This document shows positions 28,716 to 63,812 of a stretch of DNA of 64,000 bases, in pieces (position 1 is the first letter of the stretch; the number at the start of each line of letters is the position of its first letter). The notes under the pieces are model-generated. The model was not told where the DNA came from. It ran no database searches and saw only the letters and a program-made list of their open reading frames with translations. This DNA is from an uncultured Candidatus Saccharibacteria bacterium (GTDB taxonomy: Bacteria; Patescibacteriota; Dojkabacteria; CAZCSM01), in contig CAZCSM010000006.1 of NCBI GenBank assembly GCA_964501355.1, forward strand, positions 2,347 through 66,346. Reading direction: 5' to 3'. The position numbers were made by a program, and so were the translations under genes.

Positions 28716-28725
28716 AATAAAATCT

Positions 28726-35854: not shown

Positions 35855-36570
35855 GAAGCTTTGGGTATATCAATCCAAGAACGAGAATCTATTCAGCCTG
35901 TTTTCCCGTCTTTATAATAAGAATCCTCTATGAGGATTCTCTCACTTTTGTTTATTAATACGGCGGATTGTAATCATGCAAAACTTTAAGAGGCATTAGT
36001 AAAGAGTGGGGGAGTAGGGGCCTCAAGATTAGAGATTGATAATTATTATCCCATAATTATAAAACTATAGGACCTGGAGTTAATAAAGTTTTAATAATTC
36101 AAAATAGGGTGAAACGGACAGTGAAACAGGAATACGCGTAACATTCATAGCTTACTGTGGATAAGTACCCCTGTGACCATATCCTCGGGGGAGACCCGGT
36201 TTAACACAAATAATGTATAAATAATAATTGTATTTATCTTATAAACGTTGATGGTGGAGGATTAAATAGATGAATATTATTCTAATTATTCCCCATTAGG
36301 GCGCGTTGATCTAAAATGTTTGCAAATCGACAATCTGAGTGCTAATATAAGAGCATAAACTATTTCGTATAATCACCCTTATGCGAAGTACTGTGTCGAC
36401 AGGGAGCGACGGGGCAGTCCCCTGTTCTATTTTCAATATTTGCTGATTTATCTCTTTGCTTCTATAATTAATTTGAATTATTAATCATTTATTTTTATAA
36501 ACAATTCTTTTATTTACCTTTCGGTCTTGTATTCGTTCTATTACTATTAACTTTCATTGAAAATACGCTT

Positions 36571-37686
36571 ATGGTTGCTTTAGATCCCCTATCGATTGAA
36601 ATTCCTTATAAAGAGGACTTTTTGATTGATTTGACAAACAATAATTACTCTATTGAAACTGTTTATAACTACGGTAGGGATCTTACGGTCTTTGAAAGGT
36701 TTCTACAATCACGTAAAGTTCCATTTGAGAAGTTGGATAAAAGGACGATTAGTTTGTACAAAGGATTTTTACGCTCAGGGAAACATTTGGAAATAATAAA
36801 TGAGCTTCGAGATAGAGAAGAATTTTTGAAAATTACGGGACATGCTTCAATTAACATTGGTGATACGGCAGAATCTCGTGTGACGAATTCTAAGGGGGTT
36901 CTAAGCGACGATAAGGTTGCAGGTGCTACACGAGGTGCTTTGCAAAATACAAGTTTGAATAAACTCTCGGCTCGATCTGTGAATCGGATGCTTTCTGCTC
37001 TCAGATCTTACCTCGGATATTTGCTCGACTATGATTATGTATGTCCGATTGCTCCCGAAGTTATTAAACTTATAAAAACGGAACGTAAAGAATCTCAAGT
37101 TGCTGATCTTGATGAATTAATTCAAATTATCGAAGCTTCAGAATTATATGAGGAAGATGACTTTGTTAAACTTCGAAATCGTGCAATGCTTGAAGTTCTT
37201 TTTTCAACTGGGATGAGAATCTCTGAACTTGTTAGTTTAGGAACTGCGGATATTAATGCGGAAGGTAAGATCTATATTATGGGTAAAGGAAAGAAGCAGC
37301 GTATGGTTTATTTGACCGAAAGGGCTAGGGGGCATTTGAATGAGTATATGAAGAGAAGAGGGACTTCTGAATTTTCTACCTCCCCTGCTCTATTTTTATC
37401 TTCTCGCGGTCAGGGGAAAAATACGAGAAAAAGTCGAATAACTCCACGTTATGTTCAGATGAAAATTCAACAATATCGCAAACTTTTGGGGATTGTGGTT
37501 CCGGTGACGCCACATGGTTTGAGGCACGGTTTCGCAACTTATTTGGCTGAAGAAGGCGCAAATCCGGCGGCGATCCAGAGGCTTCTCGGTCATGAATCTC
37601 TTCAAACTACGACAAGATATGTGCATGCGTCGGATAAATTTGCAGAGGAAACACATAAGAAATATCATCCGCTGGCGGTGGGATAA
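36571..37686 (+). CDS. Tyrosine site-specific recombinase/integrase (XerC/D-phage integrase family) with an enlarged N-terminal SAM-like domain
   Basis: C-terminal catalytic motifs HGLRH and LLGHESLQTTTRYVH, with R...K...H.R..Y placement. It follows a 716-bp non-coding region. Confidence 0.8.
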   Translation: MVALDPLSIEIPYKEDFLIDLTNNNYSIETVYNYGRDLTVFERFLQSRKVPFEKLDKRTISLYKGFLRSGKHLEIINELRDREEFLKITGHASINIGDTAESRVTNSKGVLSDDKVAGATRGALQNTSLNKLSARSVNRMLSALRSYLGYLLDYDYVCPIAPEVIKLIKTERKESQVADLDELIQIIEASELYEEDDFVKLRNRAMLEVLFSTGMRISELVSLGTADINAEGKIYIMGKGKKQRMVYLTERARGHLNEYMKRRGTSEFSTSPALFLSSRGQGKNTRKSRITPRYVQMKIQQYRKLLGIVVPVTPHGLRHGFATYLAEEGANPAAIQRLLGHESLQTTTRYVHASDKFAEETHKKYHPLAVG

Positions 37687-37890
37687 GAAAATTAAAAATT
37701 AAAAATTAAAAAGTAAAAAAGAAATTTTACGGTTTCAGTGGCAGGGACAGGATGAGGGTTTTTGTAGTCTGGAAAGTGCAATGCACTGTTACTCGTCACT
37801 GAATTTGTGTAAAAAATCTCTTGCAATCAGGCGGATTTTTGATAATATATGTCATATACTTATAAATATTTATAGTTTTGTGTCACAAAC

Positions 37891-38514
37891 ATGCGTTTTT
37901 TAGATTTTAAACAAAAGCTTGAAGGTTTTGTAGTATTTTCTTTGGATGATATTGGGGCTTTTGATCCGAATTTTAATATGGTTCAATTGTCGCAGTGGCA
38001 AAAGAAAAATTACATTAGGAAAATTATAAAGGGAAAGTATATTTTCTCTGATTCAGATTTAAATGAAAAACATCTTTTCTTAATCAGTAATGAGCTTTTG
38101 TCGCCGTCATATATTTCATTAGAAACGGCACTTTCGTGGTATGGAATAATACCCGAAGGTGTTTATACGATAACGGCGGTTTCACCTATTCGAACTATGG
38201 ATTATCAAGTTTCAATTGGTAATTTTTCTTACAATAAGATAAAGAAGTCGGCTTTCTTCGGAGATGTTGTGAATGAGATTCCCGGAACTAAGAGAAAATA
38301 TAGGATTGCTTCAATAGAAAAAGCCATTATTGATTATTTGTATTACCACAAAGAAATAGTATCTTCTGATGATATCGATGCTTTGCGATTTAATAGTACT
38401 GTCATAAAAAACGGTTTAGACTTTAATCTCTTCATTTCATATGCGAAGGTTATTGAAAACGCAGAGTTATTGAAAAGAGCCAATATTTTTGTAAAGTATT
38501 TTGAGAATGCTTAA
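37891..38514 (+). CDS. AbiEi-family type IV toxin-antitoxin antitoxin/transcriptional regulator
   Basis: N-terminal winged-helix segment FSLDDIGAFDPNFNMVQLSQWQKKNYIRKIIKGKY is typical of the AbiEi_4 domain. It overlaps the downstream toxin by 14 bp. Confidence 0.65.
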   Translation: MRFLDFKQKLEGFVVFSLDDIGAFDPNFNMVQLSQWQKKNYIRKIIKGKYIFSDSDLNEKHLFLISNELLSPSYISLETALSWYGIIPEGVYTITAVSPIRTMDYQVSIGNFSYNKIKKSAFFGDVVNEIPGTKRKYRIASIEKAIIDYLYYHKEIVSSDDIDALRFNSTVIKNGLDFNLFISYAKVIENAELLKRANIFVKYFENA

Positions 38515-39280
38515 ATTAAGTGAAATTAAAGAGAATTATTCTCCTAAATTACAGGTTTTCTCAAGAGGAATTCTGAGAGAATATATTCAATACAAGATTC
38601 TTGAGGTTATTTATAGTTCCAAATTTGCTTCGAAGTTGGTTTTCATGGGCGGAACAGCTCTTCGAATTGTTTATGATAATCAGAGGTTTTCTGAAGATTT
38701 AGACTTTGATAATTTTTCTTTAACAGTTGATGATTTTGAGAATCTTACCAATTTAATAGAGAATTCTTTGGAGAATGAGGGTTATGAAATAGAGATTAGG
38801 AATGTCTACAAAGGTGCTTTTCATTGTTATATCAAAATTCCGAAAGTATTGCAGCTTGAGGGTTTATCTGATATTTCGAACGAAAAGATTACGATTCGAA
38901 TTGATACAACTCCTCAAAATTATGATTATAAGAAGGGTTTATTTTTGATTGATAAATTTGGTGTGTATCAGAATATTTCTGTTGTCCCAATAGAGCTTTT
39001 GATGGCACAGAAGTTTGCTGCGATTTTAGGCAGGAAACGTGCAAAGGGTCGAGATTATTTTGATTTGTCGTATTTGTTTGGTTTGGGTGTTGAACCTGAT
39101 ATGTTATATATTGAAAAGAAATTAGGGTTTTCAAATTTGTCTGAACTTCGGATTGCTGTTCTCGATCATCTTAAGAATGTAAATTTGGAGGATATGGTTA
39201 AAGATGTGGAAAAGTTCTTGTTTAATCCTAGTCACACTGACAGAATAAGAAATTTTCCGCAAATGATAGAAAAGCTTTGA
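38501..39280 (+). CDS. AbiEii/AbiGii-family nucleotidyltransferase toxin (DUF1814)
   Basis: Motifs FMGGTALRIVY and RFSEDLDFD match the nucleotidyltransferase-fold abortive-infection toxin. Confidence 0.75.
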   Translation: MRMLKLSEIKENYSPKLQVFSRGILREYIQYKILEVIYSSKFASKLVFMGGTALRIVYDNQRFSEDLDFDNFSLTVDDFENLTNLIENSLENEGYEIEIRNVYKGAFHCYIKIPKVLQLEGLSDISNEKITIRIDTTPQNYDYKKGLFLIDKFGVYQNISVVPIELLMAQKFAAILGRKRAKGRDYFDLSYLFGLGVEPDMLYIEKKLGFSNLSELRIAVLDHLKNVNLEDMVKDVEKFLFNPSHTDRIRNFPQMIEKL

Positions 39281-39303: not shown

Positions 39304-39372
39304 GTGTACATGCTTCGGATAAATTCGCAGAGGAAACGCATAAGAAATATCATCCGCTGGCGGTGGGATAAG
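39304..39372 (+). pseudogene. Orphan duplicate of the integrase 3-prime terminus (last 22 codons plus stop)
   Basis: The 69-bp copy of 37618-37686 has 5 mismatches that are all synonymous, so it still encodes VHASDKFAEETHKKYHPLAVG followed by a stop. The last 33 bp are identical. Confidence 0.6.
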
Positions 39373-39605
39373 ATAAGGAAAAAGTAAAAAGGAAAAATAT
39401 GTGGTGAGCTTGTCCCTCCTTAGCGGGACGAAGTAAAACTAGGGGAAAAAAGATGCTTTTTCCTCAAATTTTTGGTAAAATGTTATCTTATATCTATATA
39501 TTATATCATTTTTATTTATTTATTTTATTTGTAGAATAAAATGCTGACACTAACAGGAGACCAACAATAGAATCTATTCTTGGAGATGAAGTTTTAGATC
39601 GTGCT

Positions 39606-50288: not shown

Positions 50289-52088
50289 ATGTACGCGTCT
50301 CAAAGCGTTGCTGAAAAATTACTCGAAAAAGGTACTATTAACGCGGATCAATTCTCTGCGGCTCGTTCAGAATCATTGCGAAAAGGCGTTGCGGTAGAAG
50401 ATGTCTTACAAAGCGATGGTGTTGTAAGTGGTGTTGATATTGCAAAAGCAAAGTCTGAAATTTATGATATCCCGTTTGTTGATCTCCTTGAATTATCCTT
50501 TGATAAAGATGTAATAAGCAAAATCTCAGCTGATGTTGCTCGTCGTCAGAACGCTATTCCATTCAAAGCAACCGAAACCGCTCTTGAAATTGCCATGAAA
50601 GATCCTTTGGATATTCAGGCTGTAAACTATCTCTCAAAATTAATCGGACAAAGGATAATTCCTTATTATGCCGATCCGGCTGCGATTGAGAAAGTGATTG
50701 ATTCTCAGTATAAAGAAGAGTTTGCTGGTGAAGTTACGGAAGCTATTGAAGAAGTTTCAGAGGATAAACCAAAGGAAATTGAAGAGCAGATTTCTGATGT
50801 TGGAAAAGTTGAAGAAGAGATTCAGCGTGCACCTGTCGCTCGTATTATCAATATGATGCTTGAGTACGCTGTTAAATCAAAGGCTTCTGATATTCATATT
50901 GAGCCAAGTGAAACGAAGCTTCGAGTTCGGATGAGAATACATGGTGTTCTAGTTCAAAAACTTGAAATGCCAATGAGTGTTCATCCTGCACTTGTTTCTA
51001 GAATCAAAATTTTGGCGAAACTGAAAATTGATGAAAAGAGAGTTCCTCAGGATGGTCGTTTTGGTATAAAACTGAAGGGGAAAGAAGTTGACCTTCGTGT
51101 CTCTACGTTACCTACAATTGACGGTGAAAAAGTTGTTATTCGTTTGCTTGATCGTTCAAGCGGAATTTTTAGTTTAGAGGAAACGGGGCTTAGAGGAAGT
51201 GCATATAAATCATTTTTAGAAGCCTTAACCTTAACGACAGGAATTGTGCTTGTGACGGGTCCGACCGGTAGTGGTAAAACACAAACTCTTGCAAGTTCAC
51301 TTGATAGGATTAATACAGAGAAAATAAATATTATCACACTTGAGAATCCTGTTGAAATTAAGATTCCCGGTGTTAACCAGGTTAATGTTAATCCTGATGC
51401 TGGGCTAACTTTTGCCTCAGGTCTTCGCTCTATTCTTCGTCAGGACCCTGATGTTGTGATGGTCGGTGAAATTCGTGATGGAGAAACGGCAAGACTTGCA
51501 ATGCAGGCTTCTTTGACTGGTCATTTGGTGTTTTCTACACTTCACACGAATAGTGCGGCGGGAGCACTTCCTAGGCTTATTGATATGGGAATTGAGCCAT
51601 ACCTTATTGCTTCCACCGTTCATTTGGTTGCAGCACAAAGACTTCCTCGAAAAATTTGTCCTTTTTGCATGGAGAGCTATGTGGCTACCCCCGAGGTCGC
51701 AAAAGATATTGTCGATGTACTGGGTAACTTAAAGATTGATATTGTCTCTCACTCGAAACAATATTGCCCAGTTTGCAAAGCAGGACAACCCTGCCCTCAT
51801 ACAGAAATTGAAAAGGATGATATTCCTGACATTGATCAATTAATTCTTTTCCGAGGGAAAGGATGCGAAAAGTGTGAAGGAAGCGGTTATTCAGGAAGAA
51901 TTGGAATTTATGAAGTATTGAATGTTACTGACAAGATTGGTAAATTAGTAATGGAACAAAGCTCTACAAGTCAGATTGACGATTTGGCCAGAGCGGAAGG
52001 CATGATTTCAATGACACAGGATGGGTACTTGAAAGCTTTGGAGGGAATAACTACGATTGAAGAAGTTTTAAGAGTTTCAAAAGCATAA
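50289..52088 (+). CDS. pilB: Type IV pilus/T2SS assembly ATPase (PilB/GspE), locus 2
   Basis: GSPII_E_N-like N-terminus, Walker A VTGPTGSGKTQTLA and an extended Cys cluster CPFC..CPVC..C..C. Confidence 0.85.
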   Translation: MYASQSVAEKLLEKGTINADQFSAARSESLRKGVAVEDVLQSDGVVSGVDIAKAKSEIYDIPFVDLLELSFDKDVISKISADVARRQNAIPFKATETALEIAMKDPLDIQAVNYLSKLIGQRIIPYYADPAAIEKVIDSQYKEEFAGEVTEAIEEVSEDKPKEIEEQISDVGKVEEEIQRAPVARIINMMLEYAVKSKASDIHIEPSETKLRVRMRIHGVLVQKLEMPMSVHPALVSRIKILAKLKIDEKRVPQDGRFGIKLKGKEVDLRVSTLPTIDGEKVVIRLLDRSSGIFSLEETGLRGSAYKSFLEALTLTTGIVLVTGPTGSGKTQTLASSLDRINTEKINIITLENPVEIKIPGVNQVNVNPDAGLTFASGLRSILRQDPDVVMVGEIRDGETARLAMQASLTGHLVFSTLHTNSAAGALPRLIDMGIEPYLIASTVHLVAAQRLPRKICPFCMESYVATPEVAKDIVDVLGNLKIDIVSHSKQYCPVCKAGQPCPHTEIEKDDIPDIDQLILFRGKGCEKCEGSGYSGRIGIYEVLNVTDKIGKLVMEQSSTSQIDDLARAEGMISMTQDGYLKALEGITTIEEVLRVSKA

Positions 52089-52116
52089 ATTAAATTACTT
52101 ATTAATAAATATCAAA

Positions 52117-53244
52117 ATGCCCGAAGATACAACACAAACAAGCGCAAGTGTTACTGCAGTACCTACTCAAGCATTGAAACCTTCAGGACCTTTGACTATG
52201 GCGAAGCTTTTGCAGCTCGTTGTTGATAGAGATGCTTCGGATCTTCATCTTACTGCCGGTTATCCTCCTATTCTTCGAATTGACGGAAAGCTTGTTTCTT
52301 ACGGAGTTAAACCTTTGGAAGCGGAAGATGTAAAAAAGCTTGTTTTGCAGACATTACCGGATGAACAAAAGGAACTACTTGAGGTGAACAAAGAAGTTGA
52401 TTTGTCATATGCTTTCGAAGAAAAAGCAAGATTTAGAATCAACGCCTATAACGAGAGAGGAAATGTTGCTGCTGCATATCGTTTGATTCCACAGGAGATA
52501 AGGTCTATGGAAACGTTGGGACTTCCGCAAATCTTTCATGAATTCACAAAACTTCCACAGGGTCTGGTTTTGCTTACAGGTCCTACCGGACATGGAAAAA
52601 GTACTACGCTTGCTGCTCTATTGAATGAAATTAATATGACCCAGGCAAGACATATTGTTACGATCGAAGACCCTATTGAATACCTTTACCCTGTTGGAAA
52701 ATCTCTTGTTGATCAAAGAGAGCTTCACAGAGATACTCATTCTTGGGAGATTGCTCTTCGAAGTGTTCTTCGTCAGGACCCTGATGTTGTTCTTCTCGGT
52801 GAGATGCGAGATTACGAAACAATTTCAGCGGCAATAACAGTTGCTGAAACGGGTCATTTGGTATTTGCGACTTTGCATACAAATAGTGCATCTCAATCAA
52901 TCGATAGAATAATCGATGTTTTTCCTGAACATCAACAGGCTCAGACACGAACACAGCTTGCAAATATTCTTGAAGGGGTTGTTTCTCAGCGACTTGTCCC
53001 CGTAATAGGTGGTGGTCGAAAAGCTGTTGTTGAAGTAATGCTTGCAACATCTGCCGTCAGGAATACAATTAGAGAAGGTAAAACATACCAAATTGATAAT
53101 ATTATTGCAACCAGTGGTGATGTGGGGATGATAAGTTTAGAGAAGTCACTTGTGAATCTTGTTCGCGAAGGAAAGCTAACGCTTGAAGAAGCTCAAGCCC
53201 ACTCTCTCAAACCAGAGGAGATTGTAAGATTGGTTCGGGGATAA
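52117..53244 (+). CDS. pilT: Twitching-motility retraction ATPase PilT
   Basis: Walker A LTGPTGHGKSTTLAAL plus the PilT-specific motifs GEMRD and AHSLKPEE. Confidence 0.85.
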   Translation: MPEDTTQTSASVTAVPTQALKPSGPLTMAKLLQLVVDRDASDLHLTAGYPPILRIDGKLVSYGVKPLEAEDVKKLVLQTLPDEQKELLEVNKEVDLSYAFEEKARFRINAYNERGNVAAAYRLIPQEIRSMETLGLPQIFHEFTKLPQGLVLLTGPTGHGKSTTLAALLNEINMTQARHIVTIEDPIEYLYPVGKSLVDQRELHRDTHSWEIALRSVLRQDPDVVLLGEMRDYETISAAITVAETGHLVFATLHTNSASQSIDRIIDVFPEHQQAQTRTQLANILEGVVSQRLVPVIGGGRKAVVEVMLATSAVRNTIREGKTYQIDNIIATSGDVGMISLEKSLVNLVREGKLTLEEAQAHSLKPEEIVRLVRG

Positions 53245-53264
53245 AGGAAAATTTAAAATTAAAA

Positions 53265-53633
53265 ATGAAAAATTTTAAAAAAGAGGAGAAAATTCAGTAT
53301 AGGGCTTATGCTTTTTCTCTTAATGTTATAAATCTTTTAAAGAGAAGTAAGAAACATGATTATATAAACGAGGTTCTTTTCAAGCAAATACTTCGTTCTG
53401 TAACTTCGATTGGAGCAAACATTATTGAGGGTCAAGCGGGAATTAGTCGTAAGGAGTTTCGAAATTATATGAGTATTGCACTCAAAAGTGCAAATGAAAC
53501 AAAATATTGGTTAGCACTAATACGAGATTTAAGGATATTTGTGAAAGATGATGTTGACTCGTTAATAGAAGAGTCAATAGAGATTGCAAATATATTAGGA
53601 GCGATTGTCTTCAAGTTAAGGAAAAATGACTAA
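53265..53633 (+). CDS. Four-helix-bundle protein (23S rRNA intervening-sequence protein family)
   Basis: 122 aa. SIGANIIEGQ...SANETKYWL matches the TIGR02436-type four-helix bundle. It is flanked by inverted A/T-rich repeats. Confidence 0.7.
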   Translation: MKNFKKEEKIQYRAYAFSLNVINLLKRSKKHDYINEVLFKQILRSVTSIGANIIEGQAGISRKEFRNYMSIALKSANETKYWLALIRDLRIFVKDDVDSLIEESIEIANILGAIVFKLRKND

Positions 53634-53680
53634 TGTGGAATGTTTTTGAATTTTTAACTTTTAATTTTTAATTTTCTTTT

Positions 53681-54895
53681 ATGCCGAAATTTTACTATAC
53701 AGCTAGAACTAAAACGGGAGAAGAACGAAAAGGAGATGTCGAGAGCAATTCAAAAGGTCAAGTTGCCGACTTGCTTCGCTCAAAAGGACTCGTTCCTATT
53801 GAAATTGATGAACAGAGAGGCTTCAACTTTGAGAAGCTTTCTGAAACGAATGTCGGCGGAGTGCCCATGAACGAGAAGGTTGTCTTTATGAGGCAGCTTG
53901 CGACCATGGTCGGTGCAGGATTACCACTTGTTCAAAGTATCGAAATTCTACAAGCTCAAGCTCAGAATAAGGCTTTTCAGGTTGCTCTAAAGAATATTGT
54001 AGATGCAATTCGTGGAGGTAGTAATCTTGCAGATTCAATGGATAAACAAACGGGAGTGTTTGATGAAATTACTGTTAATCTTGTCCGTGTTGGTGAGGAA
54101 ACAGGAAAGTTGGAGGAGATATTCAATCGTCTTGCGGATGATATGGAAGATCAGCGAACTTTTAGAAGCAAAGTTCAAAGTGCAATGGTCTACCCAATAA
54201 TCATAATTCTAGTTATGGTTGCGGTCGTTGGGATTCTTCTTGTCACAATGGTGCCTCAAATGACTGAAATGTATCAGGAATTTGATGCTGAACTTCCTCT
54301 TCCCACGAGGATGATGGTTTGGTTGAGTGATGTTTTAATTAATTATTGGTGGTTGGTAGGACTTCTTGTTGCTATTGTTGTAGGAAGTTTCGTTGCTTAT
54401 CGTAGATCTCCCGCCGGTCGAGAAATTACTGATAGTCTAATGTTAAAGATTCCGGTTTTTGGGAAATTGATGAGAGATGTTCAGGTCGCCGATTTCACAA
54501 GAACTTTTGAGTTGATGATGGCTAGCGGTATTGATATTACAAAGGCACTTGAAGTAACAGCTGCATCCCTCAGCAATATCATGTTTCGAAAAACAGTTGA
54601 GGCGACGATTAAGAAAGTAGAAAAAGGTGTTCCTCTCGCTGTGCCGATTTCTGAAGATCCCAACTTTCCTGTGATTGTCAGCCAGATGATTGCTGTCGGT
54701 GAAGAAACCGGGAAAGTCGATGTAATCCTGGGCAAATTAAATGAGTATTACACGGAAGAAGTTAACCATACAGTAAATAACTTGACAGCTTTATTGGAAC
54801 CAATTATCTTAGTAGTGATGGGTACTGTTGTAGGATTTATTGCTATAGCAATTTACCTTCCAATATTCCAAATTGGAGAAACAATGGGCGTTTAA
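53681..54895 (+). CDS. pilC: Type IV pilus platform protein PilC/GspF, locus 2
   Basis: Two T2SSF repeats and three TM helices. 404 aa. Confidence 0.85.
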   Translation: MPKFYYTARTKTGEERKGDVESNSKGQVADLLRSKGLVPIEIDEQRGFNFEKLSETNVGGVPMNEKVVFMRQLATMVGAGLPLVQSIEILQAQAQNKAFQVALKNIVDAIRGGSNLADSMDKQTGVFDEITVNLVRVGEETGKLEEIFNRLADDMEDQRTFRSKVQSAMVYPIIIILVMVAVVGILLVTMVPQMTEMYQEFDAELPLPTRMMVWLSDVLINYWWLVGLLVAIVVGSFVAYRRSPAGREITDSLMLKIPVFGKLMRDVQVADFTRTFELMMASGIDITKALEVTAASLSNIMFRKTVEATIKKVEKGVPLAVPISEDPNFPVIVSQMIAVGEETGKVDVILGKLNEYYTEEVNHTVNNLTALLEPIILVVMGTVVGFIAIAIYLPIFQIGETMGV

Positions 54896-54973
54896 TTTAT
54901 GTTATCCTGAATTTATTTCAGGATTTCATAAAGAAATATATGTTTACACTTTTTAATTAATAAAATTTCAAGA

Positions 54974-55390
54974 ATGGAGCAAAAACAAAAAGGTTTCACA
55001 ATCATTGAACTTCTCGTAGCTATGGCAATCTTGGGTCTGCTTATTGCTGTTATGATTCCTGGTATTGCCGTTGTTAGAAGAGGTGCTAGAAACACGGCAA
55101 GAAGAACTAGTTTGCAGGCTATCCAAGCCGCAATTGAAGATTATTATGGTACGGCTAGAAAATATCCGACCGTCACAAACAATGCTCCATCAGGGATTAC
55201 AATTAACTATACCGGTGCTGATGCGGAAGTTGATTCTCAGTTTACAGATACAGCTGCCACTGCTGCTTGTGGTAGTGCAATTAGTGATGTACAGTTTCGC
55301 TATAAATATGAATTAGTTACAGGTGGATACAAGCTAACTGCTTGTATGGAACCGGACGGTGAATCTTATATTCTGGATGGCACAAACTAG
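54974..55390 (+). CDS. Type IV pilin with C-terminal disulfide loop
   Basis: KGFTIIELLVAMAILGLLIAV prepilin signal. C-terminal Cys pair CGSAIS...KLTAC. Confidence 0.7.
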   Translation: MEQKQKGFTIIELLVAMAILGLLIAVMIPGIAVVRRGARNTARRTSLQAIQAAIEDYYGTARKYPTVTNNAPSGITINYTGADAEVDSQFTDTAATAACGSAISDVQFRYKYELVTGGYKLTACMEPDGESYILDGTN

Positions 55391-55416
55391 TTAATAAAGT
55401 TTTGTGGATTAGTTAT

Positions 55417-55446
55417 TAAAAGAGAACCTTCGGGTTCTCTTTTGTT
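55417..55446 (+). terminator. Rho-independent terminator after the pilin gene
   Basis: AAAAGAGAACC-ttcg-GGTTCTCTTTTGTT. Confidence 0.6.
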
Positions 55447-55474
55447 ATGGGATGGATACCGTGAATAATATTTT

Positions 55475-55552
55475 GTAGGGAACAGATATACCTGTTCCCT
55501 ACAGGATGTAGAATTATGGAATTCGTAGGGACAGGTCGCGACCTGTACCTAC
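55475..55552. repeat. Two adjacent REP-like palindromes with a GTAGGGA(A)CAGG core, copies 2 and 3
   Basis: GTAGGGAACAG-atatac-CTGTTCCCTAC at 55475-55502. GTAGGGACAGGTCG/CGACCTGTACCTAC, with one mismatch, at 55525-55552. Confidence 0.55.
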
Positions 55553-55591
55553 ATTGTGCTATGATGGTTTTATAAAATTAATTTTAATCAC

Positions 55592-56446
55592 ATGCTTTAT
55601 ATTCTTCTCCCTACTCTATTCATCTTCGGTCTTGCATTCGGTAGTTTTCTGAACGCTTTTGAATATCGATTATTTACGAAAAAAGACTGGGTGAAGGCAA
55701 GATCTCACTGTCCGAATTGCAAACATGAATTGTCTGCTCTGGATTTAGTTCCGGTTTTTTCCTGGTTATTTCTTGGTGGAAAGTGTAGATATTGCAGCAA
55801 GAAGATTTCTTGGCAGTATCCGGTTGTTGAGTTGGTTCTGGGAGTTTTGTTTGTAGTATATGGCTGGGTTGCTTTTGGTGGGATTTTGGGGGAACAGATA
55901 TATCAGTTCCCTACGATTGTCGATTTTACAAATTTGATTTTTGGGCTGATTGTTATTTGGTCTCTTGTTTTCTTTACAGTTTACGATTTGAAATATGGTT
56001 TGATTCCGGACAAGGTTTTGTTCCCATTGATTTGTCTGACACTTGTTAGAAATATTATTTTTTATGTATTGCGAATTCAAAATAGTCTTTCTCCATTTCT
56101 TGCTGATTTCAACTTCTGGAATCATATTCTGGCAGCGGTTTTGGCTGGCGGTTTCTTTTTCTTGGTTATCTATTTCACCAAAGGTCGTGGTATGGGTGGT
56201 GGTGATATGAAGCTTGTTTTTTGGTTTGGTTTGCTTTTGGGAGGCGCCCCTACTCTGGTTTCTCTTTATATTGGATTTATTGTTGGCGGAATTTATGGTG
56301 CAGTTGTTTTGTTAATTGGAAAAAAGAAATTTGGACAAACAGTTCCTTTTGGTCCATTTTTATGTTTGGGGGCAATTATTGTTCTTCTTGCACAGGATTA
56401 TCTTGTGGACTGGGCAAATCAGACTTTCTTTGGGGGAATCCTCTAA
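55592..56446 (+). CDS. pilD: Prepilin peptidase/N-methyltransferase (A24 family)
   Basis: N-terminal zinc ribbon CPNCKHEL...CRYCSKKI, polytopic body and a conserved Asp region (GGGDMKL). Confidence 0.85.
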   Translation: MLYILLPTLFIFGLAFGSFLNAFEYRLFTKKDWVKARSHCPNCKHELSALDLVPVFSWLFLGGKCRYCSKKISWQYPVVELVLGVLFVVYGWVAFGGILGEQIYQFPTIVDFTNLIFGLIVIWSLVFFTVYDLKYGLIPDKVLFPLICLTLVRNIIFYVLRIQNSLSPFLADFNFWNHILAAVLAGGFFFLVIYFTKGRGMGGGDMKLVFWFGLLLGGAPTLVSLYIGFIVGGIYGAVVLLIGKKKFGQTVPFGPFLCLGAIIVLLAQDYLVDWANQTFFGGIL

Positions 56447-56752
56447 TCGGTTATAGGTTTTAGTTTCTAGGTGTTAGTAGTGACAAATCAAGCTAATTTT
56501 TTGAACTAAACTCGTTTTTTGAATTTGAAGTTTTGACAAGTTTCTCTTGATAATTGGGAAACTTAGAGAAGTAATAATGAGAATGATTTTACGAAATATT
56601 CTTCTTCCATGGCAAACCTGACGATTGCAACAGAAATAGAACTTATTGTTTCTGAAACCTATAAACTAGAACCTAAAACCTATTCCCTGTTTTCATTGCT
56701 TTCTCCCCCTACTCTTTGCTATTCTGGTATGTAGAAATTTATCAAAAATTTA

Positions 56753-57295
56753 ATGTCTAATAAGTACTGCTCGAGAAACGGTTTTACAATAATTGAGCTG
56801 ATGATTGTGATGGCTATCATCGGTGTTCTTATGCCACTTGGTATCAATGCCTTTGTGAGTACGCGCCGATCAAGGGAAGTCGCAGAAGCTGCTGCAAACG
56901 CTCGCGATGTAATTAAAAGTGCTCGTGCAATGGCGCTTTCTGTCTCTTCGCCAATAACCGAGACTGATTGGCCCGTTGCGTATGAAGTGGTTTTCTCAAG
57001 TGGTAATAATACCGTGACAACAAATACTAGAGCCGTATCTGGTGATGAGCAATATTCGGACTGGGTTGCGGCTCCGGGATACTCAACGACGCAAGTCTCT
57101 TCATTGAATTTTGCGCCAGCATCTGTTTCAACACCTTCTTGTGATCGTGTTGTGTTTTCAAGCGTAAATGGGGAGATGTTCATCTATGATTCAATCTATG
57201 GAGTAAAGAGTAGTTGTACGATAACATTCACTTCGGGTAATAAAACTAGAACATTAGTCCTAAATTCTGCGCTTAAGCAGTTTGATATAGAATAG
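56753..57295 (+). CDS. Minor pilin (prepilin-type)
   Basis: NGFTIIELMIVMAIIGVL prepilin signal. Confidence 0.65.
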   Translation: MSNKYCSRNGFTIIELMIVMAIIGVLMPLGINAFVSTRRSREVAEAAANARDVIKSARAMALSVSSPITETDWPVAYEVVFSSGNNTVTTNTRAVSGDEQYSDWVAAPGYSTTQVSSLNFAPASVSTPSCDRVVFSSVNGEMFIYDSIYGVKSSCTITFTSGNKTRTLVLNSALKQFDIE

Positions 57296-57298
57296 AAA

Positions 57299-57715
57299 AT
57301 GAATTTTCTTAAAAAGCAAATTAAAGATCAAAAAGGCGCAAGCATTATCGAAACGCTTGTGGCATTAGCATTCATTGCGATTGTTTCATCATCATTTATC
57401 AATCTTGCAATTGTTGCAAGAAAGATTTCATTTCGGAATCGAGTGCAAAATGATCTTGGAAGATATGCGGGGATGATAGCAGAGGAAGTTGTGAAGGATT
57501 ATACATTAGAAGGGAATTCTATTATTAGTAGTAATCGATATTGTATAACTAATGTTAATAGTGAGGTTGGGGCTTTGGTTGAAGGTTTCCTTGAAACCTT
57601 TGATTCGTATACTTGCACTTTCCCTACAATAGCAGAAGGGAATTATCAAATTAAATTAACGGTAGATGTCTTTGGCAAAACGTTAGAAGCAAAAAGATTT
57701 GTGATATTAAAATGA
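57299..57715 (+). CDS. Minor pilin-like protein
   Basis: KGASIIETLVALAFIAIV N-terminus. Confidence 0.55.
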   Translation: MNFLKKQIKDQKGASIIETLVALAFIAIVSSSFINLAIVARKISFRNRVQNDLGRYAGMIAEEVVKDYTLEGNSIISSNRYCITNVNSEVGALVEGFLETFDSYTCTFPTIAEGNYQIKLTVDVFGKTLEAKRFVILK

Positions 57716-58263
57716 AGAAATTTCTTAAAAAACCGAATACTCAAGAATCCGGCTTTACGTTAATAGAATTGATGATCTCCATGGGGCTTCTTACTTTCGT
57801 CATGGGGATTTCTATGAATATTCTTTCCATTGTCCTGGAACTTACCAATGATGCTGATTATTCAGCTGTTATTACGCAGGAATCAAATTACGCATCGGAA
57901 AGAGTGAAGAGAATGGTCCGAAGTGCGGAAAAGTTTACAGTATCAGATAATGGGACACCCGAAATTGGAGATGATTCTCTGGAAATTGTTTTGGATGGTC
58001 GAACACATCAGTTGACTCTGCAACTCGTACCGGGTTTTACAGATAGGTTTACTTTGAAAGAGCAGATAAGTGGAAATCCCTCTTCCTCTATTCTTTCTTC
58101 TGAGGTATATATTAAACAATTTGGTTCAGAGCCTGTTTTTACAGATGTAAATGGAATTGGGGTTAGGATGGCCTTTGAGATATACCATGAGAGGGATGAT
58201 AATTCTAGTGCTGGTGCGTTTGTTTATACTCAGGCAATTGGTAGAAACGAGATTTTGAATTAA
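57712..58263 (+). CDS. Minor pilin (PulJ/PilW-like)
   Basis: SGFTLIELMISMGLLTFV prepilin signal. Confidence 0.65.
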   Translation: MKKFLKKPNTQESGFTLIELMISMGLLTFVMGISMNILSIVLELTNDADYSAVITQESNYASERVKRMVRSAEKFTVSDNGTPEIGDDSLEIVLDGRTHQLTLQLVPGFTDRFTLKEQISGNPSSSILSSEVYIKQFGSEPVFTDVNGIGVRMAFEIYHERDDNSSAGAFVYTQAIGRNEILN

Positions 58264-58307
58264 CAGAAAAGATTTTGATATAAGTCAGTTTTGTGTAATA
58301 CTGGTTT

Positions 58308-58342
58308 AAAAGATAAAAGATAAAAGATAAAAGATAAAAGAT
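58308..58342 (+). repeat. Heptanucleotide tandem repeat (AAAAGAT)x5 running into the ATG of the downstream gene
   Basis: Five perfect units read directly, ending ...AAAAG-ATG at 58341. Confidence 0.8.
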
Positions 58343-59096
58343 GAAAATCTGTGGTTATAGCAAAAATGAAAAAGGTCAGGTTTTATTGATGGTTATTATT
58401 ACCAGCACTATTGCTCTGCTTATAGTCACAGGTGTTTTTATGAGAGTTATGAAGTTAACACGTCAGGGTGTTGAGATGGAAACACACGATGCTGCATTTA
58501 GTGCTGCAGAAAAATACGCTAGACAGATCTTAGATCAACTAGAGTTAGGAAATACTGTGTCAGATACAACTTTGCAACAATGGGTTACTAATTACGATGA
58601 TTTAATTGCTGCAAGCAGAAATGAAATCAATAATATAAATGGATATTCTTTGGAAGATGGTAGTTCTTTTGAGATGGTTGGGGAAATGACCGGTTCTACA
58701 ACCTTCAAAATAGGTTCAGGATCTTGGGGAGATGTACGTATTCTTTTCACCTCCGTTGTTTATTCAGGGGGGCAATATTCAGTTCAAAAAAGAATATTTA
58801 AAACATGTAGTAATACTGATGGTGATTTGACAGCAGTTACATGTGCTTCTGCTTTGGATGTAGATACTTTTACTTATACACATCAGCCAGGCGAGGTTAC
58901 AGTACGAATGAAGCCAATCGGCGGAAAGGTCTCTTTAAATATAAATTCTTCTGCTAATCTATTTAATGAGTTTTCGTTTACAACTCGTGAAGAAGGCACT
59001 TTGTCCGAAGCCACATTATCAGTTCCTGTCTCAAAATCAATGCCTTCCCTATTCGATCATGTTTTGTATAATGGAAAAAGTCAAATTAATAAATGA
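58341..59096 (+). CDS. PilX-like pilus-associated protein. Paralog of the 27399-28715 gene.
   Basis: N-terminal EKGQVLLMVIITSTIALLIV shares the EKGQV-plus-hydrophobic anchor with the locus-1 PilX-like protein. Confidence 0.4.
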   Translation: MKICGYSKNEKGQVLLMVIITSTIALLIVTGVFMRVMKLTRQGVEMETHDAAFSAAEKYARQILDQLELGNTVSDTTLQQWVTNYDDLIAASRNEINNINGYSLEDGSSFEMVGEMTGSTTFKIGSGSWGDVRILFTSVVYSGGQYSVQKRIFKTCSNTDGDLTAVTCASALDVDTFTYTHQPGEVTVRMKPIGGKVSLNINSSANLFNEFSFTTREEGTLSEATLSVPVSKSMPSLFDHVLYNGKSQINK

Positions 59097-61081
59097 ATGT
59101 GTTTTTAGGAAAATCTATGGGAAAAATTTTGTTTAAAACTTTACTGATTGCTATTTCACTGATTATATTTGGGGGAATCTATTTCTTTTCCGGAAAGCCC
59201 ATTTTTGCAGCATGTGGAGATACTTGTTGTGTCTATTATTGGAAAGATGGTGCTGGAAACGATGTGTGCGGGGATTGGGATACTATTAGATGCGATGGGT
59301 GTTCTCAGAATCCTCCAGTATGTTGCGGACATTGTGGACCTTGTGCGCCAGCACCTTCTGCCGTTTGTGGAAATGGAAGTAAAGAAGGTTCTGAGCAGTG
59401 CGATGATGGTAATACAACAAGTGGGGACGGGTGTAGTAGCTCATGTATAACTGAGTTTTGCGGTGATGGGACGACACAGAACTGGCCTGGGCATACGGAA
59501 GAGTGTGACGATCATAATACAACAAGTGGGGACGGGTGTAGTAGTTTATGTATAACTGAGTTTTGCGGTGATGGTATCATACAGAATTGGCCGGGACATA
59601 CCGAGCAGTGTGATGATTGGGGTACTGCGCCTAATGATGGTTGTAGCGCAACTTGTCAAAAAGAGGTTTGGCCAATAGCAAAAATAGAGGCAATGGATAT
59701 CAACAATAATTTAATAGAGCATAACGCTCCTGGAGGTATACCTGATCTTAATCAGTATAAGGAGCTTAATCGTAGTACAAGTGATGATTATTTGAGACTT
59801 TCTACTGAGGGTCAAATTCCATTTGGATATAACATAGATCGAATAGAAATGTATTTTCGTAAAAGATATAACTTTGATGGAGCAGTTCCTTCATTAGCGG
59901 AGGCTCAGGCTGAATGTACCAACGGCTGGAGTACACCTCCTTCAAATCCCAGCTCCGCTTGGTGTGTTTATCAGACACCTCTATCATGTACATCTGGAAC
60001 ATGTTCTTCTTCAAGTGATTTTGCAACCTGGGACCCAGGCAATTACTCTTCAGGTTATTATGAATTCGTTATCAATGCTTTTGCGGATGGTGGTAATTGT
60101 ACGGGAAACCGAGATCATGATGGATATAATGCTGCGTTAGGTGTTCAAACCATAGCTCCTTGGTATGATTGTGATCCATATACGACGGAGGATGAAAGTA
60201 ACACGGTTTTCCCCAATCCTTGGTCCGGGGTAAATGAAGAAAGTGACTCTTTACAGATTGCATTGCTAGATAGCTGCGGAAATGGTATTAAAGAGGAATC
60301 TGAAGAATGTGACGATGCAAATGCTAGCAATTTTGATTCTTGTCGAGATAATTGTCTCTGGAACGTTTGTGGTGATGAGTATCCAAATACTGATGGAGAT
60401 CTTACAGATGCAACACAGACCCCACCGGCAAATAGCTATGTTGAAGAATGTGATCAAGGTGGTAATAATGGAACGGGACATGGTTGTGCACTTGATTGTT
60501 CTTTCGAAAATGGTGCTTGGTTTAGAACCTGGGATGGCGATATTTACTCAAGTGAGGGTGTCACTCAACGTGTCTCTGCAGACGTCCCCCTAGATCCTGT
60601 ATTCTCAACATATATGTGTTATGACAGTTATGGTATTTTCACAGTTGGGTTAGGATGTTTCAATACAAATATACTTGATGACGAGCCTAATTCGCCTTTT
60701 TATGTTGACTTGGATTTGAGTACAAGCGAGATTTCTCCTGTGGAAATAAAGACAAACGAAGAGTTTGTGAAAATACAAGCAAAATTATCTGGATTTACAA
60801 ATGAACAGAATTTTAGCAATAATGGAGTTGAAGTTACATTTTATAATGTTGCGGGAGGAGTCCGTACTATGCCGGAAAGAATAGAAGATAATAGAATCGT
60901 TTACTTGTCTGATAATCTAGAAATTGGGGAGAATATTGAATATAGTGAATCTTGCGCTGATGAGAAATCGTGTTCTTTATTAATTGTTGTAGATGGTAGT
61001 GTTACAATTACAAAAGATGTTGAGCATATAGACGCCTTCATTATTGCAAGTGGTAGAATTATAGTTGAGAGTGGGTATTAA
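59093..61081 (+). CDS. Secreted/membrane-anchored protein with Myxococcus-type cysteine-rich repeats
   Basis: Signal anchor, then tandem CG(N/D)G...E(Q/E)CDDGNTTSGDGCSS.C repeats (the TIGR02232-type pattern) and a large Cys-rich beta domain. Confidence 0.6.
   Translation: MNVFLGKSMGKILFKTLLIAISLIIFGGIYFFSGKPIFAACGDTCCVYYWKDGAGNDVCGDWDTIRCDGCSQNPPVCCGHCGPCAPAPSAVCGNGSKEGSEQCDDGNTTSGDGCSSSCITEFCGDGTTQNWPGHTEECDDHNTTSGDGCSSLCITEFCGDGIIQNWPGHTEQCDDWGTAPNDGCSATCQKEVWPIAKIEAMDINNNLIEHNAPGGIPDLNQYKELNRSTSDDYLRLSTEGQIPFGYNIDRIEMYFRKRYNFDGAVPSLAEAQAECTNGWSTPPSNPSSAWCVYQTPLSCTSGTCSSSSDFATWDPGNYSSGYYEFVINAFADGGNCTGNRDHDGYNAALGVQTIAPWYDCDPYTTEDESNTVFPNPWSGVNEESDSLQIALLDSCGNGIKEESEECDDANASNFDSCRDNCLWNVCGDEYPNTDGDLTDATQTPPANSYVEECDQGGNNGTGHGCALDCSFENGAWFRTWDGDIYSSEGVTQRVSADVPLDPVFSTYMCYDSYGIFTVGLGCFNTNILDDEPNSPFYVDLDLSTSEISPVEIKTNEEFVKIQAKLSGFTNEQNFSNNGVEVTFYNVAGGVRTMPERIEDNRIVYLSDNLEIGENIEYSESCADEKSCSLLIVVDGSVTITKDVEHIDAFIIASGRIIVESGY
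59402..59650 (+). repeat. 108-bp tandem DNA repeat, about 2.3 copies, encoding the 36-aa Cys-rich repeat
   Basis: gatggtaatacaacaagtggggacgggtgtagtag...gagtgtgac repeats at 59510 with roughly 90% identity. Confidence 0.7.
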
Positions 61082-61174
61082 GTTGAAATGAATATGTTGG
61101 TTTTGGAGTAAAACCATTTACGTCTTCGGTATGGGAGAAGAAGTGATAATGAAATCTTTTTAGAAAATTCTGAT

Positions 61175-62320
61175 ATGATAATGGAAAGGAAAACACGGAA
61201 AATATTAATTGAGGGAGTACTGATTCTTTTTGCAGTAAGTGTTAGTATTTCTATTTGGGGAGACAGAGAACTGGCCGAAGCTGCAACAACCTGTGTTGAT
61301 GATACATTATCTGCTTCAGTAAATAATTCTACCAAAATAAATGCAACTTCAATATGCAACGCTCCCAGTGTATCTGTTGTTAGTCCTACTCAGATAGATA
61401 TCCGATTTGAAAGGGCTGGACAACCATCCCCAGCTCTTTGCCGAAATTCTTACCCGGTAGTATATACTAGTGGAGTGGGTTGGCAGTTAACTGCTTGTTA
61501 TACAGGAACTTGTGAGACACGAACTTTGCAGGTTGCATATGAGGGATCCTTTTGGACAGGAGGCCTTGAGGATACCGATGAAGGAACGGGTGATGGACAA
61601 CCAGATTATGATATTCAAATTTCTGCGAGTATAGTACATATACCATGTTGTGGTGATGGTTCGGTGGACGCTGATGAATTATGTGATAACATAGCTCCTT
61701 ATAACTATAAAGATGATTGTGGTTATGGAGAGACAAATTGCTGTTACACTCCAGCTGTAGGAACATCTTTAATGTGTACAACATACCTCGGTCCACATTG
61801 TGGTGATGGAATTCCCAACGGGTCGGAAGACTGCGATGATGGGAATACAGTTGATGGTGATGGTTGCAATACATACACTTCTAATTGTCAACATATTTGT
61901 GGTGATGGCTCGTTAGATGAGGATGAAGAATGTGAATCTAATGGCATATGGTATGGAGGAACCGGCTTGCCTATTGGCTCCTGTACGGTTACTGACCCAC
62001 CGGGTACGTGTAAATATTGTAATGCGGCCGATTGTACCGTTCAATCTGTTGCAGACGGTGCAGATGTTCCACTTGTTGTTACAGGGGGATTGGTTGCACT
62101 TGGTCAAAATCAAAGTGATTCTGCGATTGAATTGCAGCGAAATATTATATTCTACTCCCCCATTGATGGTGAACTATATTTCGGTGATAGTACAGAAGAT
62201 TTTAACAACAATATGAGTCCCGCGGAAGCTCTTTACTATGATCCTCGTTATTTAGATATTTATAGAAATATTTTAGGCGATTTCGGAAATATACAATTTA
62301 GAGAGTCAGGTGTTCAATAA
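61175..62320 (+). CDS. Second secreted protein with Myxococcus-type cysteine-rich repeats
   Basis: Signal peptide, then CCGDGSVDADELCDN, HCGDGIPNGSEDCDDGNTVDGDGC and ICGDGSLDEDEEC repeats. Confidence 0.6.
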   Translation: MIMERKTRKILIEGVLILFAVSVSISIWGDRELAEAATTCVDDTLSASVNNSTKINATSICNAPSVSVVSPTQIDIRFERAGQPSPALCRNSYPVVYTSGVGWQLTACYTGTCETRTLQVAYEGSFWTGGLEDTDEGTGDGQPDYDIQISASIVHIPCCGDGSVDADELCDNIAPYNYKDDCGYGETNCCYTPAVGTSLMCTTYLGPHCGDGIPNGSEDCDDGNTVDGDGCNTYTSNCQHICGDGSLDEDEECESNGIWYGGTGLPIGSCTVTDPPGTCKYCNAADCTVQSVADGADVPLVVTGGLVALGQNQSDSAIELQRNIIFYSPIDGELYFGDSTEDFNNNMSPAEALYYDPRYLDIYRNILGDFGNIQFRESGVQ

Positions 62321-62346
62321 TTTTTAGATAAATTAATTAACAGAAA

Positions 62347-62718
62347 ATGGCAAATATACTTGTAGTAGAAGATGAAAAAGATTTATTAGATATCTATCAG
62401 GAAGTCCTGGAAGGTGCTGGTTATAAGGTTGTAACAGCAGAAAATGGTAAGGTTGCTCTCGAGAAGTTGAGCGAAAGTCCCTTTGACTTGGTACTTCTTG
62501 ACCTTATGATGCCCGAGGTAGATGGTATGGAAGTTTTGAAGGTTATTCGTGCAGATAAAGATGGGAAATATAAAAATCTGAAAGTCATTGTTCTTACAAA
62601 CCTTTCAAGCGATGTCGTGATAAAGGAAAGTTTTGATGCAAAGGCTGATGGATATTTAATGAAAACAGAGTTAACTCCAAGTCAGGTGGTCGAAGAAGTT
62701 CGAGGGTTCTTAAATTAA
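62347..62718 (+). CDS. Stand-alone CheY-like response-regulator receiver domain
   Basis: ILVVEDE...DLVLLDLMMP...K receiver signature. There is no output domain. Confidence 0.8.
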   Translation: MANILVVEDEKDLLDIYQEVLEGAGYKVVTAENGKVALEKLSESPFDLVLLDLMMPEVDGMEVLKVIRADKDGKYKNLKVIVLTNLSSDVVIKESFDAKADGYLMKTELTPSQVVEEVRGFLN

Positions 62719-62780
62719 AGAATTGACTCGGGTATAAACACCTGTTATCTTAAATACTGATAATTTGTTATATCAAAAAA

Positions 62781-63812
62781 ATGTCACTGCCTAATTTTTT
62801 TGGATTGGATTTTGGAAATCATACTGTAAAAATTGTTCAATTAAAAGGCCAGCAAGGAAAGCCTTCTCTTGTCAGTTACGGTGGCACCTCTACCCCATTC
62901 GGCGTCATTAGAAGTGAAAATGAAGAACACCAAAAAGGTCTTGCCGATGTGACAAAAGCCCTCGTTAAAACACTAAATATCAAGACAAATAATTGTGTTG
63001 TTGCATTGCCGGAGTCATCAATATTTACGAGACTCATTACAATTCCCGGAATGAAACCACAGGAAGTTGAAAATGCCGTATATTGGGAGGCAAAACAATA
63101 TATTCCTGTCGATTTGGAAGCTGTCCAATTGGATTGGATGGAAGTCGGCGAAACTGTAGTTGGCGAGACCGTACAAAAGAAAATACTTCTTGTCGCGGCT
63201 CCAAAGACATTGGTTGAATTATATGTAAAGGTCGTTCAGATGGCAGGTTTAGAGCCGATTGCTTTGGAAACAGAAGCAATTGCGAATGTACGAGCAATGA
63301 GCAACTCAACTCAAAATTCTAATGCTATTATCCTCGATTTTGGGGCTCAGTCTACAGATCTCGTTGTAATGAGCAAAGGAAACTTGCTTTTCTCTCAAAC
63401 TTTAAGTACCGGTTCAGATGCTTTAACAAAGGCTATTATGCAGGATTACGCGCTGAATGAAGAACAGGCGGAACAGTACAAGAGAACATACGGTGTTGAT
63501 GAAACTCAGCTTGAGGGCAAGTTAGTACAAACACTTGCACCCGTCATGAATTCCATCGTTGATGAGACGAGGAGAGCTTTGGGCTTTTATCGAACACACG
63601 CAGCTGAAGAAGCCCCGGACAAGGTTTTTCTCGTTGGCGATGGAGCAAGGCTTCCTGGATTGTCTTCATTTATGACGAAATCTTTAGGCGTTGAGTCTTC
63701 AGTAGGAAATCCTTGGAACAATATTGATTTAGGAGATCGCTTTGCTCAGGAGTTAGCTTCGGGCTCTCCTGGTTACTCTGTTGCAGTTGGTCTAGCATTA
63801 AAGTCAAAATAG
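62781..63812 (+). CDS. pilM: Type IV pilus assembly protein PilM, locus 2
   Basis: FFGLDFGNHTVKIVQL actin-like ATPase fold. 343 aa. Confidence 0.8.
   Translation: MSLPNFFGLDFGNHTVKIVQLKGQQGKPSLVSYGGTSTPFGVIRSENEEHQKGLADVTKALVKTLNIKTNNCVVALPESSIFTRLITIPGMKPQEVENAVYWEAKQYIPVDLEAVQLDWMEVGETVVGETVQKKILLVAAPKTLVELYVKVVQMAGLEPIALETEAIANVRAMSNSTQNSNAIILDFGAQSTDLVVMSKGNLLFSQTLSTGSDALTKAIMQDYALNEEQAEQYKRTYGVDETQLEGKLVQTLAPVMNSIVDETRRALGFYRTHAAEEAPDKVFLVGDGARLPGLSSFMTKSLGVESSVGNPWNNIDLGDRFAQELASGSPGYSVAVGLALKSK

Follow-up and report, generated by a model that had tools for sequence, protein, structure and literature searches.

The 64-kb stretch of DNA that we analysed, referred to here as the window, holds two type IV pilus clusters (23020-31400 and 50289-63812), each with pilB, pilC, pilins and a pilM-like gene. 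This two-cluster layout recalls the two pilus systems described for Saccharibacteria. In the first cluster the pilin genes follow one another without intergenic spacers. The second cluster (Table 1) runs from pilB to pilM and includes three canonical minor pilin genes, the third of which encodes a protein that matches Pfam N_methyl (E=5e-7) and has homologues P0013-P0016. A spacer of 77 nt (58264-58340) separates this gene from the next, the PilX/GspK-like gene that is the subject of this analysis. Its 3' end overlaps, by ATGA, the first of two genes for cysteine-rich DUF4215 proteins. Altered levels of the PilX-like mRNA would probably also affect that gene. The 662-aa DUF4215 protein occupies the place of PilY1-type tip proteins, and gene order suggests that it may act as a tip adhesin.

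Table 1. Coordinates of features in the second pilus cluster and in the spacer upstream of the PilX/GspK-like gene.
Feature	Position	Strand	Description
pilB	50289		start of the second cluster
pilT	52117
Leader of the IVP-family gene	53245-53275		AAAATTT AAAATTA AAAATGA; ATG 53265
23S-rRNA-IVP-family gene	53265-53633		23S rRNA-intervening-sequence protein family (PF05635, E=1.5e-23), between pilT and pilC
Leader of pilC	53634-53683		TTTTGAA TTTTTAA CTTTTAA TTTTTAA; ATG 53681
pilC	53681
Pilin gene	54974
pilD	55592
Canonical minor pilin gene	56753		leader G/FTIIE
Canonical minor pilin gene	57299		leader G/ASIIE
Upstream minor pilin gene, third of three canonical pseudopilins	57712-58263	+	183 aa; leader ends G/FTLIE
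Solitary AAAAGAT unit	58267-58273	+	start of spacer, within local duplication
Sigma-70-type promoter-like element	58275-58302	+	TTGATA 58275-58280, 16-nt spacer, TGT-AATACT 58294-58302 (extended -10)
Heptamer array	58308-58342	+	(AAAAGAT)x5
PilX/GspK-like minor pilin gene	58341-59096	+	251 aa; open reading frame begins at ATG 58341
Cysteine-rich DUF4215-repeat protein gene	59093-61081	+	662 aa; Pfam DUF4215 E=8e-21
Second DUF4215 protein gene	61175		cysteine-rich
Response regulator gene	62347		receiver domain only
pilM	62781		end of the second cluster

The protein encoded at 58341 combines a short charged leader (G12/QVLLM, lacking Glu at +5) with a long N-terminal helix and a beta-sandwich domain; its N-terminus reads MKICGYSKNEKG/QVLLMVIITSTIALL. 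PilX/GspK proteins are marked by a short charged leader that terminates in Gly, by a hydrophobic helix lacking Glu5 and by a place after three canonical minor pilins, and all of these are present here. Like PilX1 of Nanosynbacter lyticus TM7x and like GspK/PilX of type II secretion systems and type IVa pili, it lacks a canonical PilD signal and is encoded last among the minor pilins. Profile searches gave no match to Pfam, including PilX_N, at E<=5, and an N-terminal match to NCBIfam T2SS_GspK that fell below threshold (E=0.044; 13.3 bits, with a cut-off of 130). The pilin-like fold and the PilB/T/C/D/M cluster around the gene identify it as one for a surface structure, and its product is probably surface-exposed.

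The start of this gene matters here, as the array described below reaches it. Five homologues (42-58% identity) share the N-terminus MK[IF]xxxxK[ND][EN][KQ]GQVLLMVIITSTIAL; M1, K8 and G12-M17 are common to six aligned homologues, with K8 and G12-M17 invariant, and synonymous changes are seen in the DNA upstream of M17. Because of this common N-terminus, and because an in-frame TAA lies at 58335-58337, two codons 5' of the ATG, we take ATG 58341 to be the true start of the PilX-like gene.

The array itself consists of five AAAAGAT units, all of them perfect when read from the sequence. It is preceded by GTGTAATACTGGTTT and followed by G AAA ATC; with the left flank taken in another way, TTTTGTGTAATACTGGTTT stands directly before (AAAAGAT)5G AAA ATC. 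The final AT of the array and G58343 together form the start codon (58341-58343). Tandem Repeats Finder (TRF) reports the array at 58307-58346 with a period of 7, 5.7 copies and 96% matches, and its score of 73 is the highest for any short-period array in the window. The perfect periodic run measures 36 nt (58307-58342) and tops all perfect runs of period 4 to 12 in the window, the runner-up having 25 nt. No run of 36 nt arose in 300 second-order Markov simulations of the whole window (maximum 26) or in 1000 simulations with the composition of its intergenic DNA (maximum 25). The array is therefore confirmed as real and beyond chance, an uninterrupted tandem repeat of the kind expected at a slippage locus. 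Searched without mismatches, the dimer AAAAGATAAAAGAT has no second site in the 64 kb of this genome that the window covers.

An earlier note on this DNA had described a heptamer repeat overlapping the start codon of a PilX-like gene. The repeat, its coordinates and the overlap are borne out by the sequence, by TRF and by the homologue-supported ATG. That note had also named, as a finding that would overturn its proposal, a real start well downstream of the repeat; the homologue alignment and the TAA at 58335 place the start at ATG 58341 instead. The PilX-like identity likewise holds, on the strength of the N-terminus, the fourth place in the minor-pilin operon and the predicted fold.

A TAA recurs with every AAAAGAT unit and, since 7 is not divisible by 3, all three forward frames are closed within the array. 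Consequently there can be no translation from an upstream start, a possibility that we rejected on these grounds, and no frameshift; the repeat lies outside the open reading frame. The mode of initiation was assessed over 65 genes of the window. A GGAG, GAGG or AGGA sequence occurs at -4 to -14 in only about 3-4 of these, and positions -1 to -4 before the starts are 43-52% A; the organism thus starts translation largely without Shine-Dalgarno sites. On the minus strand, the start of the gene at 31537-31998 is preceded, at a distance of about 11 nt, by a perfect AAGGAGGT. As the array runs into the ATG, the gain or loss of a unit keeps the roughly 30 nt before the ATG unchanged.

Upstream of the array, the spacer carries a promoter-like element that scores 9 of 12 matches in a consensus scan, with the TG present. 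In the promoter scan as a whole such sites are no commoner than in shuffled sequence, and on that scan by itself the element would be weak. The case for it becomes much stronger because its boxes, TTTTGA[TA]AT and TGT[GA]TAAT[AG]CT[GA]G, are conserved in four related loci (L010, L011, L012 and L013), although the proteins flanking the element are only 53-62% identical. Between the conserved boxes the sequence varies, and the distance is equal in the window and in L011-L013, with L010 about 2 nt shorter. The array begins 5 nt beyond the -10-like element, at about the predicted transcription start (approximately 58308-58310), and would thus make up almost the whole of a leader of about 32 nt that is A-rich and unstructured. 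In RNA folding no base of the array is paired, and the fold of the region is no more stable than those of its shuffles (z=+0.7). A search of the window against Rfam returned a single tRNA and nothing in the spacer or leader; on these two results a riboswitch or attenuator was rejected. We also rejected a promoter inside the array, where the promoter scan found none. No terminator-like site was found in the 77-nt spacer, and read-through from the upstream pilin genes is therefore also possible, equally so with a start at the internal promoter.

The spacer appears, from its sequence, to have been built by local duplications. The sequence AGATTTTGA has one copy at 58250-58258, where the upstream pilin gene ends, and a second at 58271-58279, 21 nt apart; the second copy overlaps the -35-like TTGATA, and the solitary AAAAGAT unit lies between the two. 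The motif TGTGTAAT, considered as a genome-wide operator, was rejected, as it is not enriched in the window.

These observations bear on the routes by which the earlier note had supposed that the repeat could act as a phase-variation switch. A shift of frame with translation starting upstream is contradicted by the TAA in every frame and by the conserved N-terminus that begins at ATG 58341. A change in the spacing between ribosome-binding site and start fares no better, given how few genes have a Shine-Dalgarno-like 4-mer and that the proximal nucleotides stay the same after a unit change. Promoter spacing survives in part: the array lies after the -10-like element and not between -35 and -10, so that neither of the critical spacings (-35 to -10, or ribosome-binding site to start) is affected, and only the distance from promoter to start, which is the length of the leader, can change. 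The interpretation as a switch accordingly keeps its real repeat and its real start, and loses the frameshift and ribosome-binding-site routes to closed frames and near-absent Shine-Dalgarno sites. That the bacterium is host-associated, in the animal sense, is unsupported; one relative (Ga0172382) comes from a municipal landfill, and the association would at most be episymbiosis on microbes.

Comparison of the same spacer in related loci provides a view of how it evolves. In L002 there is no spacer, and stop and start abut. The spacer is free of simple-sequence repeats (SSRs) in L015 (27 nt), in L010 (57 nt, with the promoter-like element present) and in L003 and L004 (144 nt). In L014 it is long, more GC-rich and has hairpins. 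Relative to L010, which carries 25 unrelated nt at the position, our array is an insertion. In L005, L006 and L008 a (TAA)5.3 repeat overlaps a -10-like TGTAATAAT, and it is identical in these three independent metagenomes. Perfect SSRs are rare in these loci: the one in the spacer is the only one in L001, L005, L006 and L008, and none was found in the loci L004, L007, L009 and L010.

A further relative, represented by L011 and L012 together with L001, carries a heptamer array of another unit, (TAAAGAA)n, after the same promoter-like element. The L011 and L012 contigs (SRR29243436 and SRR29243440) end in TGTGTAATACTGG GCTAG (AAGAATA)n, the array starting 5 nt after TGTGTAATACTGG; contig L001 begins in (TAAAGAA)4.3, and its ATG is 79 nt further on. 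Each of the contig ends that flank this array has 29-30 periodic nt. Because this is the signature of a break in a k=31 graph, the behaviour of the de Bruijn graph points to a (TAAAGAA)n run of at least 38 nt or to heterogeneity in its length. In L013 (SRR34731994) the upstream DNA is as in L011 and the array is absent. The two are identical over 829 nt, including the first 43 nt of the spacer, and split abruptly exactly where the array begins; in its place L013 has ATT AAAAGGA AAAAGTT, which contains two degenerate units resembling AAAAGAT. The site after the promoter-like element is therefore a hotspot at which heptamers expand and strains change. With a different heptamer in a relative, and with presence or absence varying between strains, the site is evolutionarily labile. 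L011 (1-1852) and L013 (1-1047) also form a mosaic, with about 20% mismatch in the first 185 nt or so and then the 829 nt at 100%, and right after TGTGTAATACTGG the two suddenly diverge again, a pattern suggestive of recombination breakpoints within the minor-pilin operon.

Searches for closer relatives and for the placement of the organism gave a sparse return. Exact-protein look-ups with the PilX-like protein led to no other contig, and each window protein tested is alone in its 90% cluster, save the 662-aa protein, which clusters with two 52-aa fragments. The only trace of the organism in SRR8925812 (Logan) is a contig of 1.8 kb that lies 10 kb away from the repeat. A scan of genome contigs for the PilX-like family found nothing, and the same scan with PilB had a sole match, at 42% identity, in a species-representative Paceibacterota MAG. 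The metagenome scan gave one contig, from an already known lineage, and megablast of the region against a phage collection gave no match. We infer an assignment to Patescibacteria from the PilB match, from the two pilus systems and from the PilX-like architecture akin to TM7x PilX1.

We also asked where else in the window heptamer periodicity occurs. When lags 3 to 12 were tested, strongly periodic leaders (at least 0.6 self-match over -35 to +3) were found at lag 7 only, at 3 of 65 genes; one gene reaches exactly 0.60 at lag 8. Besides the PilX-like gene these are the IVP-family gene and pilC (Table 1). The three leaders have different units, some A-rich and one T-rich. The IVP-family gene has a heptamer-periodic AT-rich spacer on either side of it. 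Over all intergenic DNA of the window the lag-7 signal is only marginal, and on this basis we rejected a global heptamer code. Heptamers also occur in a 93-nt direct duplication (37620-37712 and 39305-39397; 89% identity), one copy of which consists of the 3' end of an integrase gene (36571-37686) and A-rich heptamers. The heptamer part is the most diverged stretch of the duplication: one copy has a perfect (AAAATTA)3.6, the other degenerate units. Because periodic leaders occur at the IVP-family gene and at pilC, and diverged heptamers in this duplication, heptamer slippage is taken as a general mutational mode of the AT-rich spacers of this genome, one that extends beyond surface genes. Downstream of the integrase gene, the 93-nt copies bracket an open reading frame without a Pfam match (37891-38514) and an AbiEii toxin gene (38501-39280), and copies and module together resemble an integrated cassette with an att-like duplication. 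The 716 nt upstream of the integrase gene (35855-36570) contain no open reading frame of at least 100 aa, no Rfam match and no tRNA.

Taken together, these findings lead us to favour a reading, to which we give about an even chance of being right, in which the array is a young product of slippage that acts as a passive or tuning leader and not as an on/off switch. The setting is a type IV pilus operon in a bacterium that has not been cultivated, is probably of Patescibacteria type and makes hardly any use of Shine-Dalgarno sites; there, replication slippage would have lengthened the array in the space that separates an internal sigma-70-like promoter from the AUG of the PilX/GspK-like gene. 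Transcription from this promoter would begin at about the first unit, so that essentially the whole leader would be array; being A-rich and unpaired, with stops in all frames, such a leader would suit initiation independent of Shine-Dalgarno sites. Gain or loss of units would alter the length of the leader in 7-nt steps and would keep the frame, the AUG-proximal sequence and the promoter geometry. Because only leader length changes with unit number, we expect unit changes to affect expression little, or at most in a graded way, both for the PilX-like gene and for the DUF4215 gene that overlaps it. The leader role, the size of the expression effect, the transcription start and the taxon are all put forward here as probable readings of the data, and the array as a plausible, still unproven candidate for a leader that tunes expression by slippage. 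Even as a passive leader it would be of use, in that the locus offers a conserved internal promoter-like motif for these operons, as well as evidence for Shine-Dalgarno-independent initiation and for recurrent heptamer slippage in the spacers of the genome.

The main rival is that the array is a true contingency locus, in which frequent slipped-strand changes of unit number alter the length of the leader, or the distance from promoter to start, and so strongly modulate or switch the PilX-like and DUF4215 genes. This would diversify pilus tip or adhesion phenotypes within a population, as at hmw1A/hmw2A of Haemophilus influenzae or at uspA2 of Moraxella catarrhalis. At hmw1A/hmw2A, (TGAAAGA)n tracts of 13-38 units lie about 70-105 bp upstream of the start; variation in unit number and its effect on expression are documented, with tract length inverse to expression (PMC2651432). 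Our array and the hmw tracts share a 7-bp, purine- and A-rich unit (TGAAAGA and TAAAAGA differ by one base) upstream of a surface gene and outside the open reading frame, in a promoter or predicted leader region, and the hmw tract modulates expression rather than shifting the frame (PMC2651432). The unit length of our array and its place after a conserved promoter-like element, with a predicted transcription start, fit that type. Unlike the hmw tracts, however, it has 5 units in place of 13-38 (PMC2651432) and overlaps the ATG, and the organisms are unrelated. Shorter tracts also vary: in H. influenzae a heptamer tract of 1-7 units, 13 bp upstream of a TonB-dependent receptor gene, differs between strains (PMC2651432). 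For uspA2, as cited in PMC4679880, the (AGAT)n repeat of the 5' untranslated region affects expression over 6-23 units, with an optimum at 18. That repeat, too, is a tandem array that separates the start of a surface gene from its promoter, and AAAAGAT contains its AGAT as a core; unlike ours, its unit is a tetranucleotide, its tracts are longer and, according to the same source, its effect was shown experimentally.

Several of our own observations would agree with such a locus. Five units without a substitution imply recent slippage, and the gene encodes a surface pilus component. A second lineage has a heptamer of a different unit at the equivalent position, its presence differs between strains with identical upstream DNA, and such recurrence and strain-level change at the exact site are what selection would produce. 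In two of the four other spacer-bearing lineages the only perfect SSR of the locus is in this spacer. Three or more heptamer units upstream of a surface gene pass the usual bioinformatic threshold (PMC2651432), and known 5'-UTR or promoter-proximal repeats, the heptamers at hmw1A/hmw2A and the AGAT repeat at uspA2, modulate expression (PMC2651432, PMC4679880). Set against this are the lack of any route through frameshift, Shine-Dalgarno or -35/-10 spacing, the constancy of the sequence proximal to the AUG on gain or loss of a unit, and the short tract, as well as the similar arrays that adjoin non-surface genes and the (TAA)5 of a relative, which is invariant in the same spacer across three samples. 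On balance we consider a contingency locus rather unlikely.

A broader version of this idea would hold that Patescibacteria-like episymbionts possess a contingency device in heptamer arrays that expand and collapse just after a conserved TGTGTAATACT-type promoter and act through leader length. We judge this distinctly unlikely. If it were true, how much of the pilus tip module (the PilX-like pilin and the cysteine-rich DUF4215 protein) is made would depend on leader length, and attachment to host cells would become heterogeneous within a population. Patescibacteria would also gain their first described case of SSR-based phase or level variation, one that works through a Shine-Dalgarno-independent leader in place of a frameshift or promoter spacer; full-text searches of a literature library turned up no paper that connects simple-sequence repeats or contingency loci to Patescibacteria.

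A less likely rival, and in our estimation a very improbable one, is that the array serves as a binding platform in mRNA or DNA, each heptamer taken by one OB-fold or other domain (S1, Csp-like or a regulator), for translational control. Its precedent is the TAACTGA arrays found in the Shine-Dalgarno-poor genomes of Beggiatoaceae, cyanobacteria and Bacteroidetes, which have 2-6 forward copies, the largest class ending 1 nt before the start; they have stops in three frames and no Shine-Dalgarno site, and indels between close strains come in steps of 7 nt (PMC4679880). Translational control by protein binding has been proposed for them, and they show no bias towards surface genes (PMC4679880). 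Our array has the same anatomy, a heptamer array of a comparable number of units that ends at the start codon, with stops in all frames and no Shine-Dalgarno site (PMC4679880), and the finding that only lag 7 gives strongly periodic leaders, at three genes, would also agree. Where the two part is in reuse: a single unit recurs at up to about 170 loci in the TAACTGA system, whereas AAAAGATAAAAGAT is confined to one site in 64 kb here, with the AAAAGAT array unit not reused elsewhere in the window, and the three periodic leaders differ in unit. Because the array of the relative has another unit and lies 79 nt from its ATG, a sequence-specific factor is unlikely. Nor do the neighbouring genes include a candidate regulator that binds DNA or RNA, the response regulator at 62347 being a receiver domain only.

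Finally, that the array is a chance low-complexity run or an assembly artefact without biological meaning is scarcely credible: the spacer is AT-rich (GC 0.22) and the contig is metagenome-assembled, but the simulations never produced such a run, the array is shorter than a sequencing read and sits inside a 69.6-kb contig, and independent assemblies of a relative show an equivalent array.

What makes the locus worth following is its position in the pilus. Among the devices by which ultrasmall episymbiotic bacteria bind their hosts, type IV pili, and especially PilX-type tip pilins, have the best support (PMC11623550), and if the array does tune or switch the tip module, its state would be readable by read counts alone in organisms that are hard to culture. 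The DUF4215 gene contains a repeat of its own, a 105-bp tandem repeat at 59396-59617 (2.1 copies, 84% identity) that encodes cysteine-rich CGDG...C modules, and the number of these could vary in frame.
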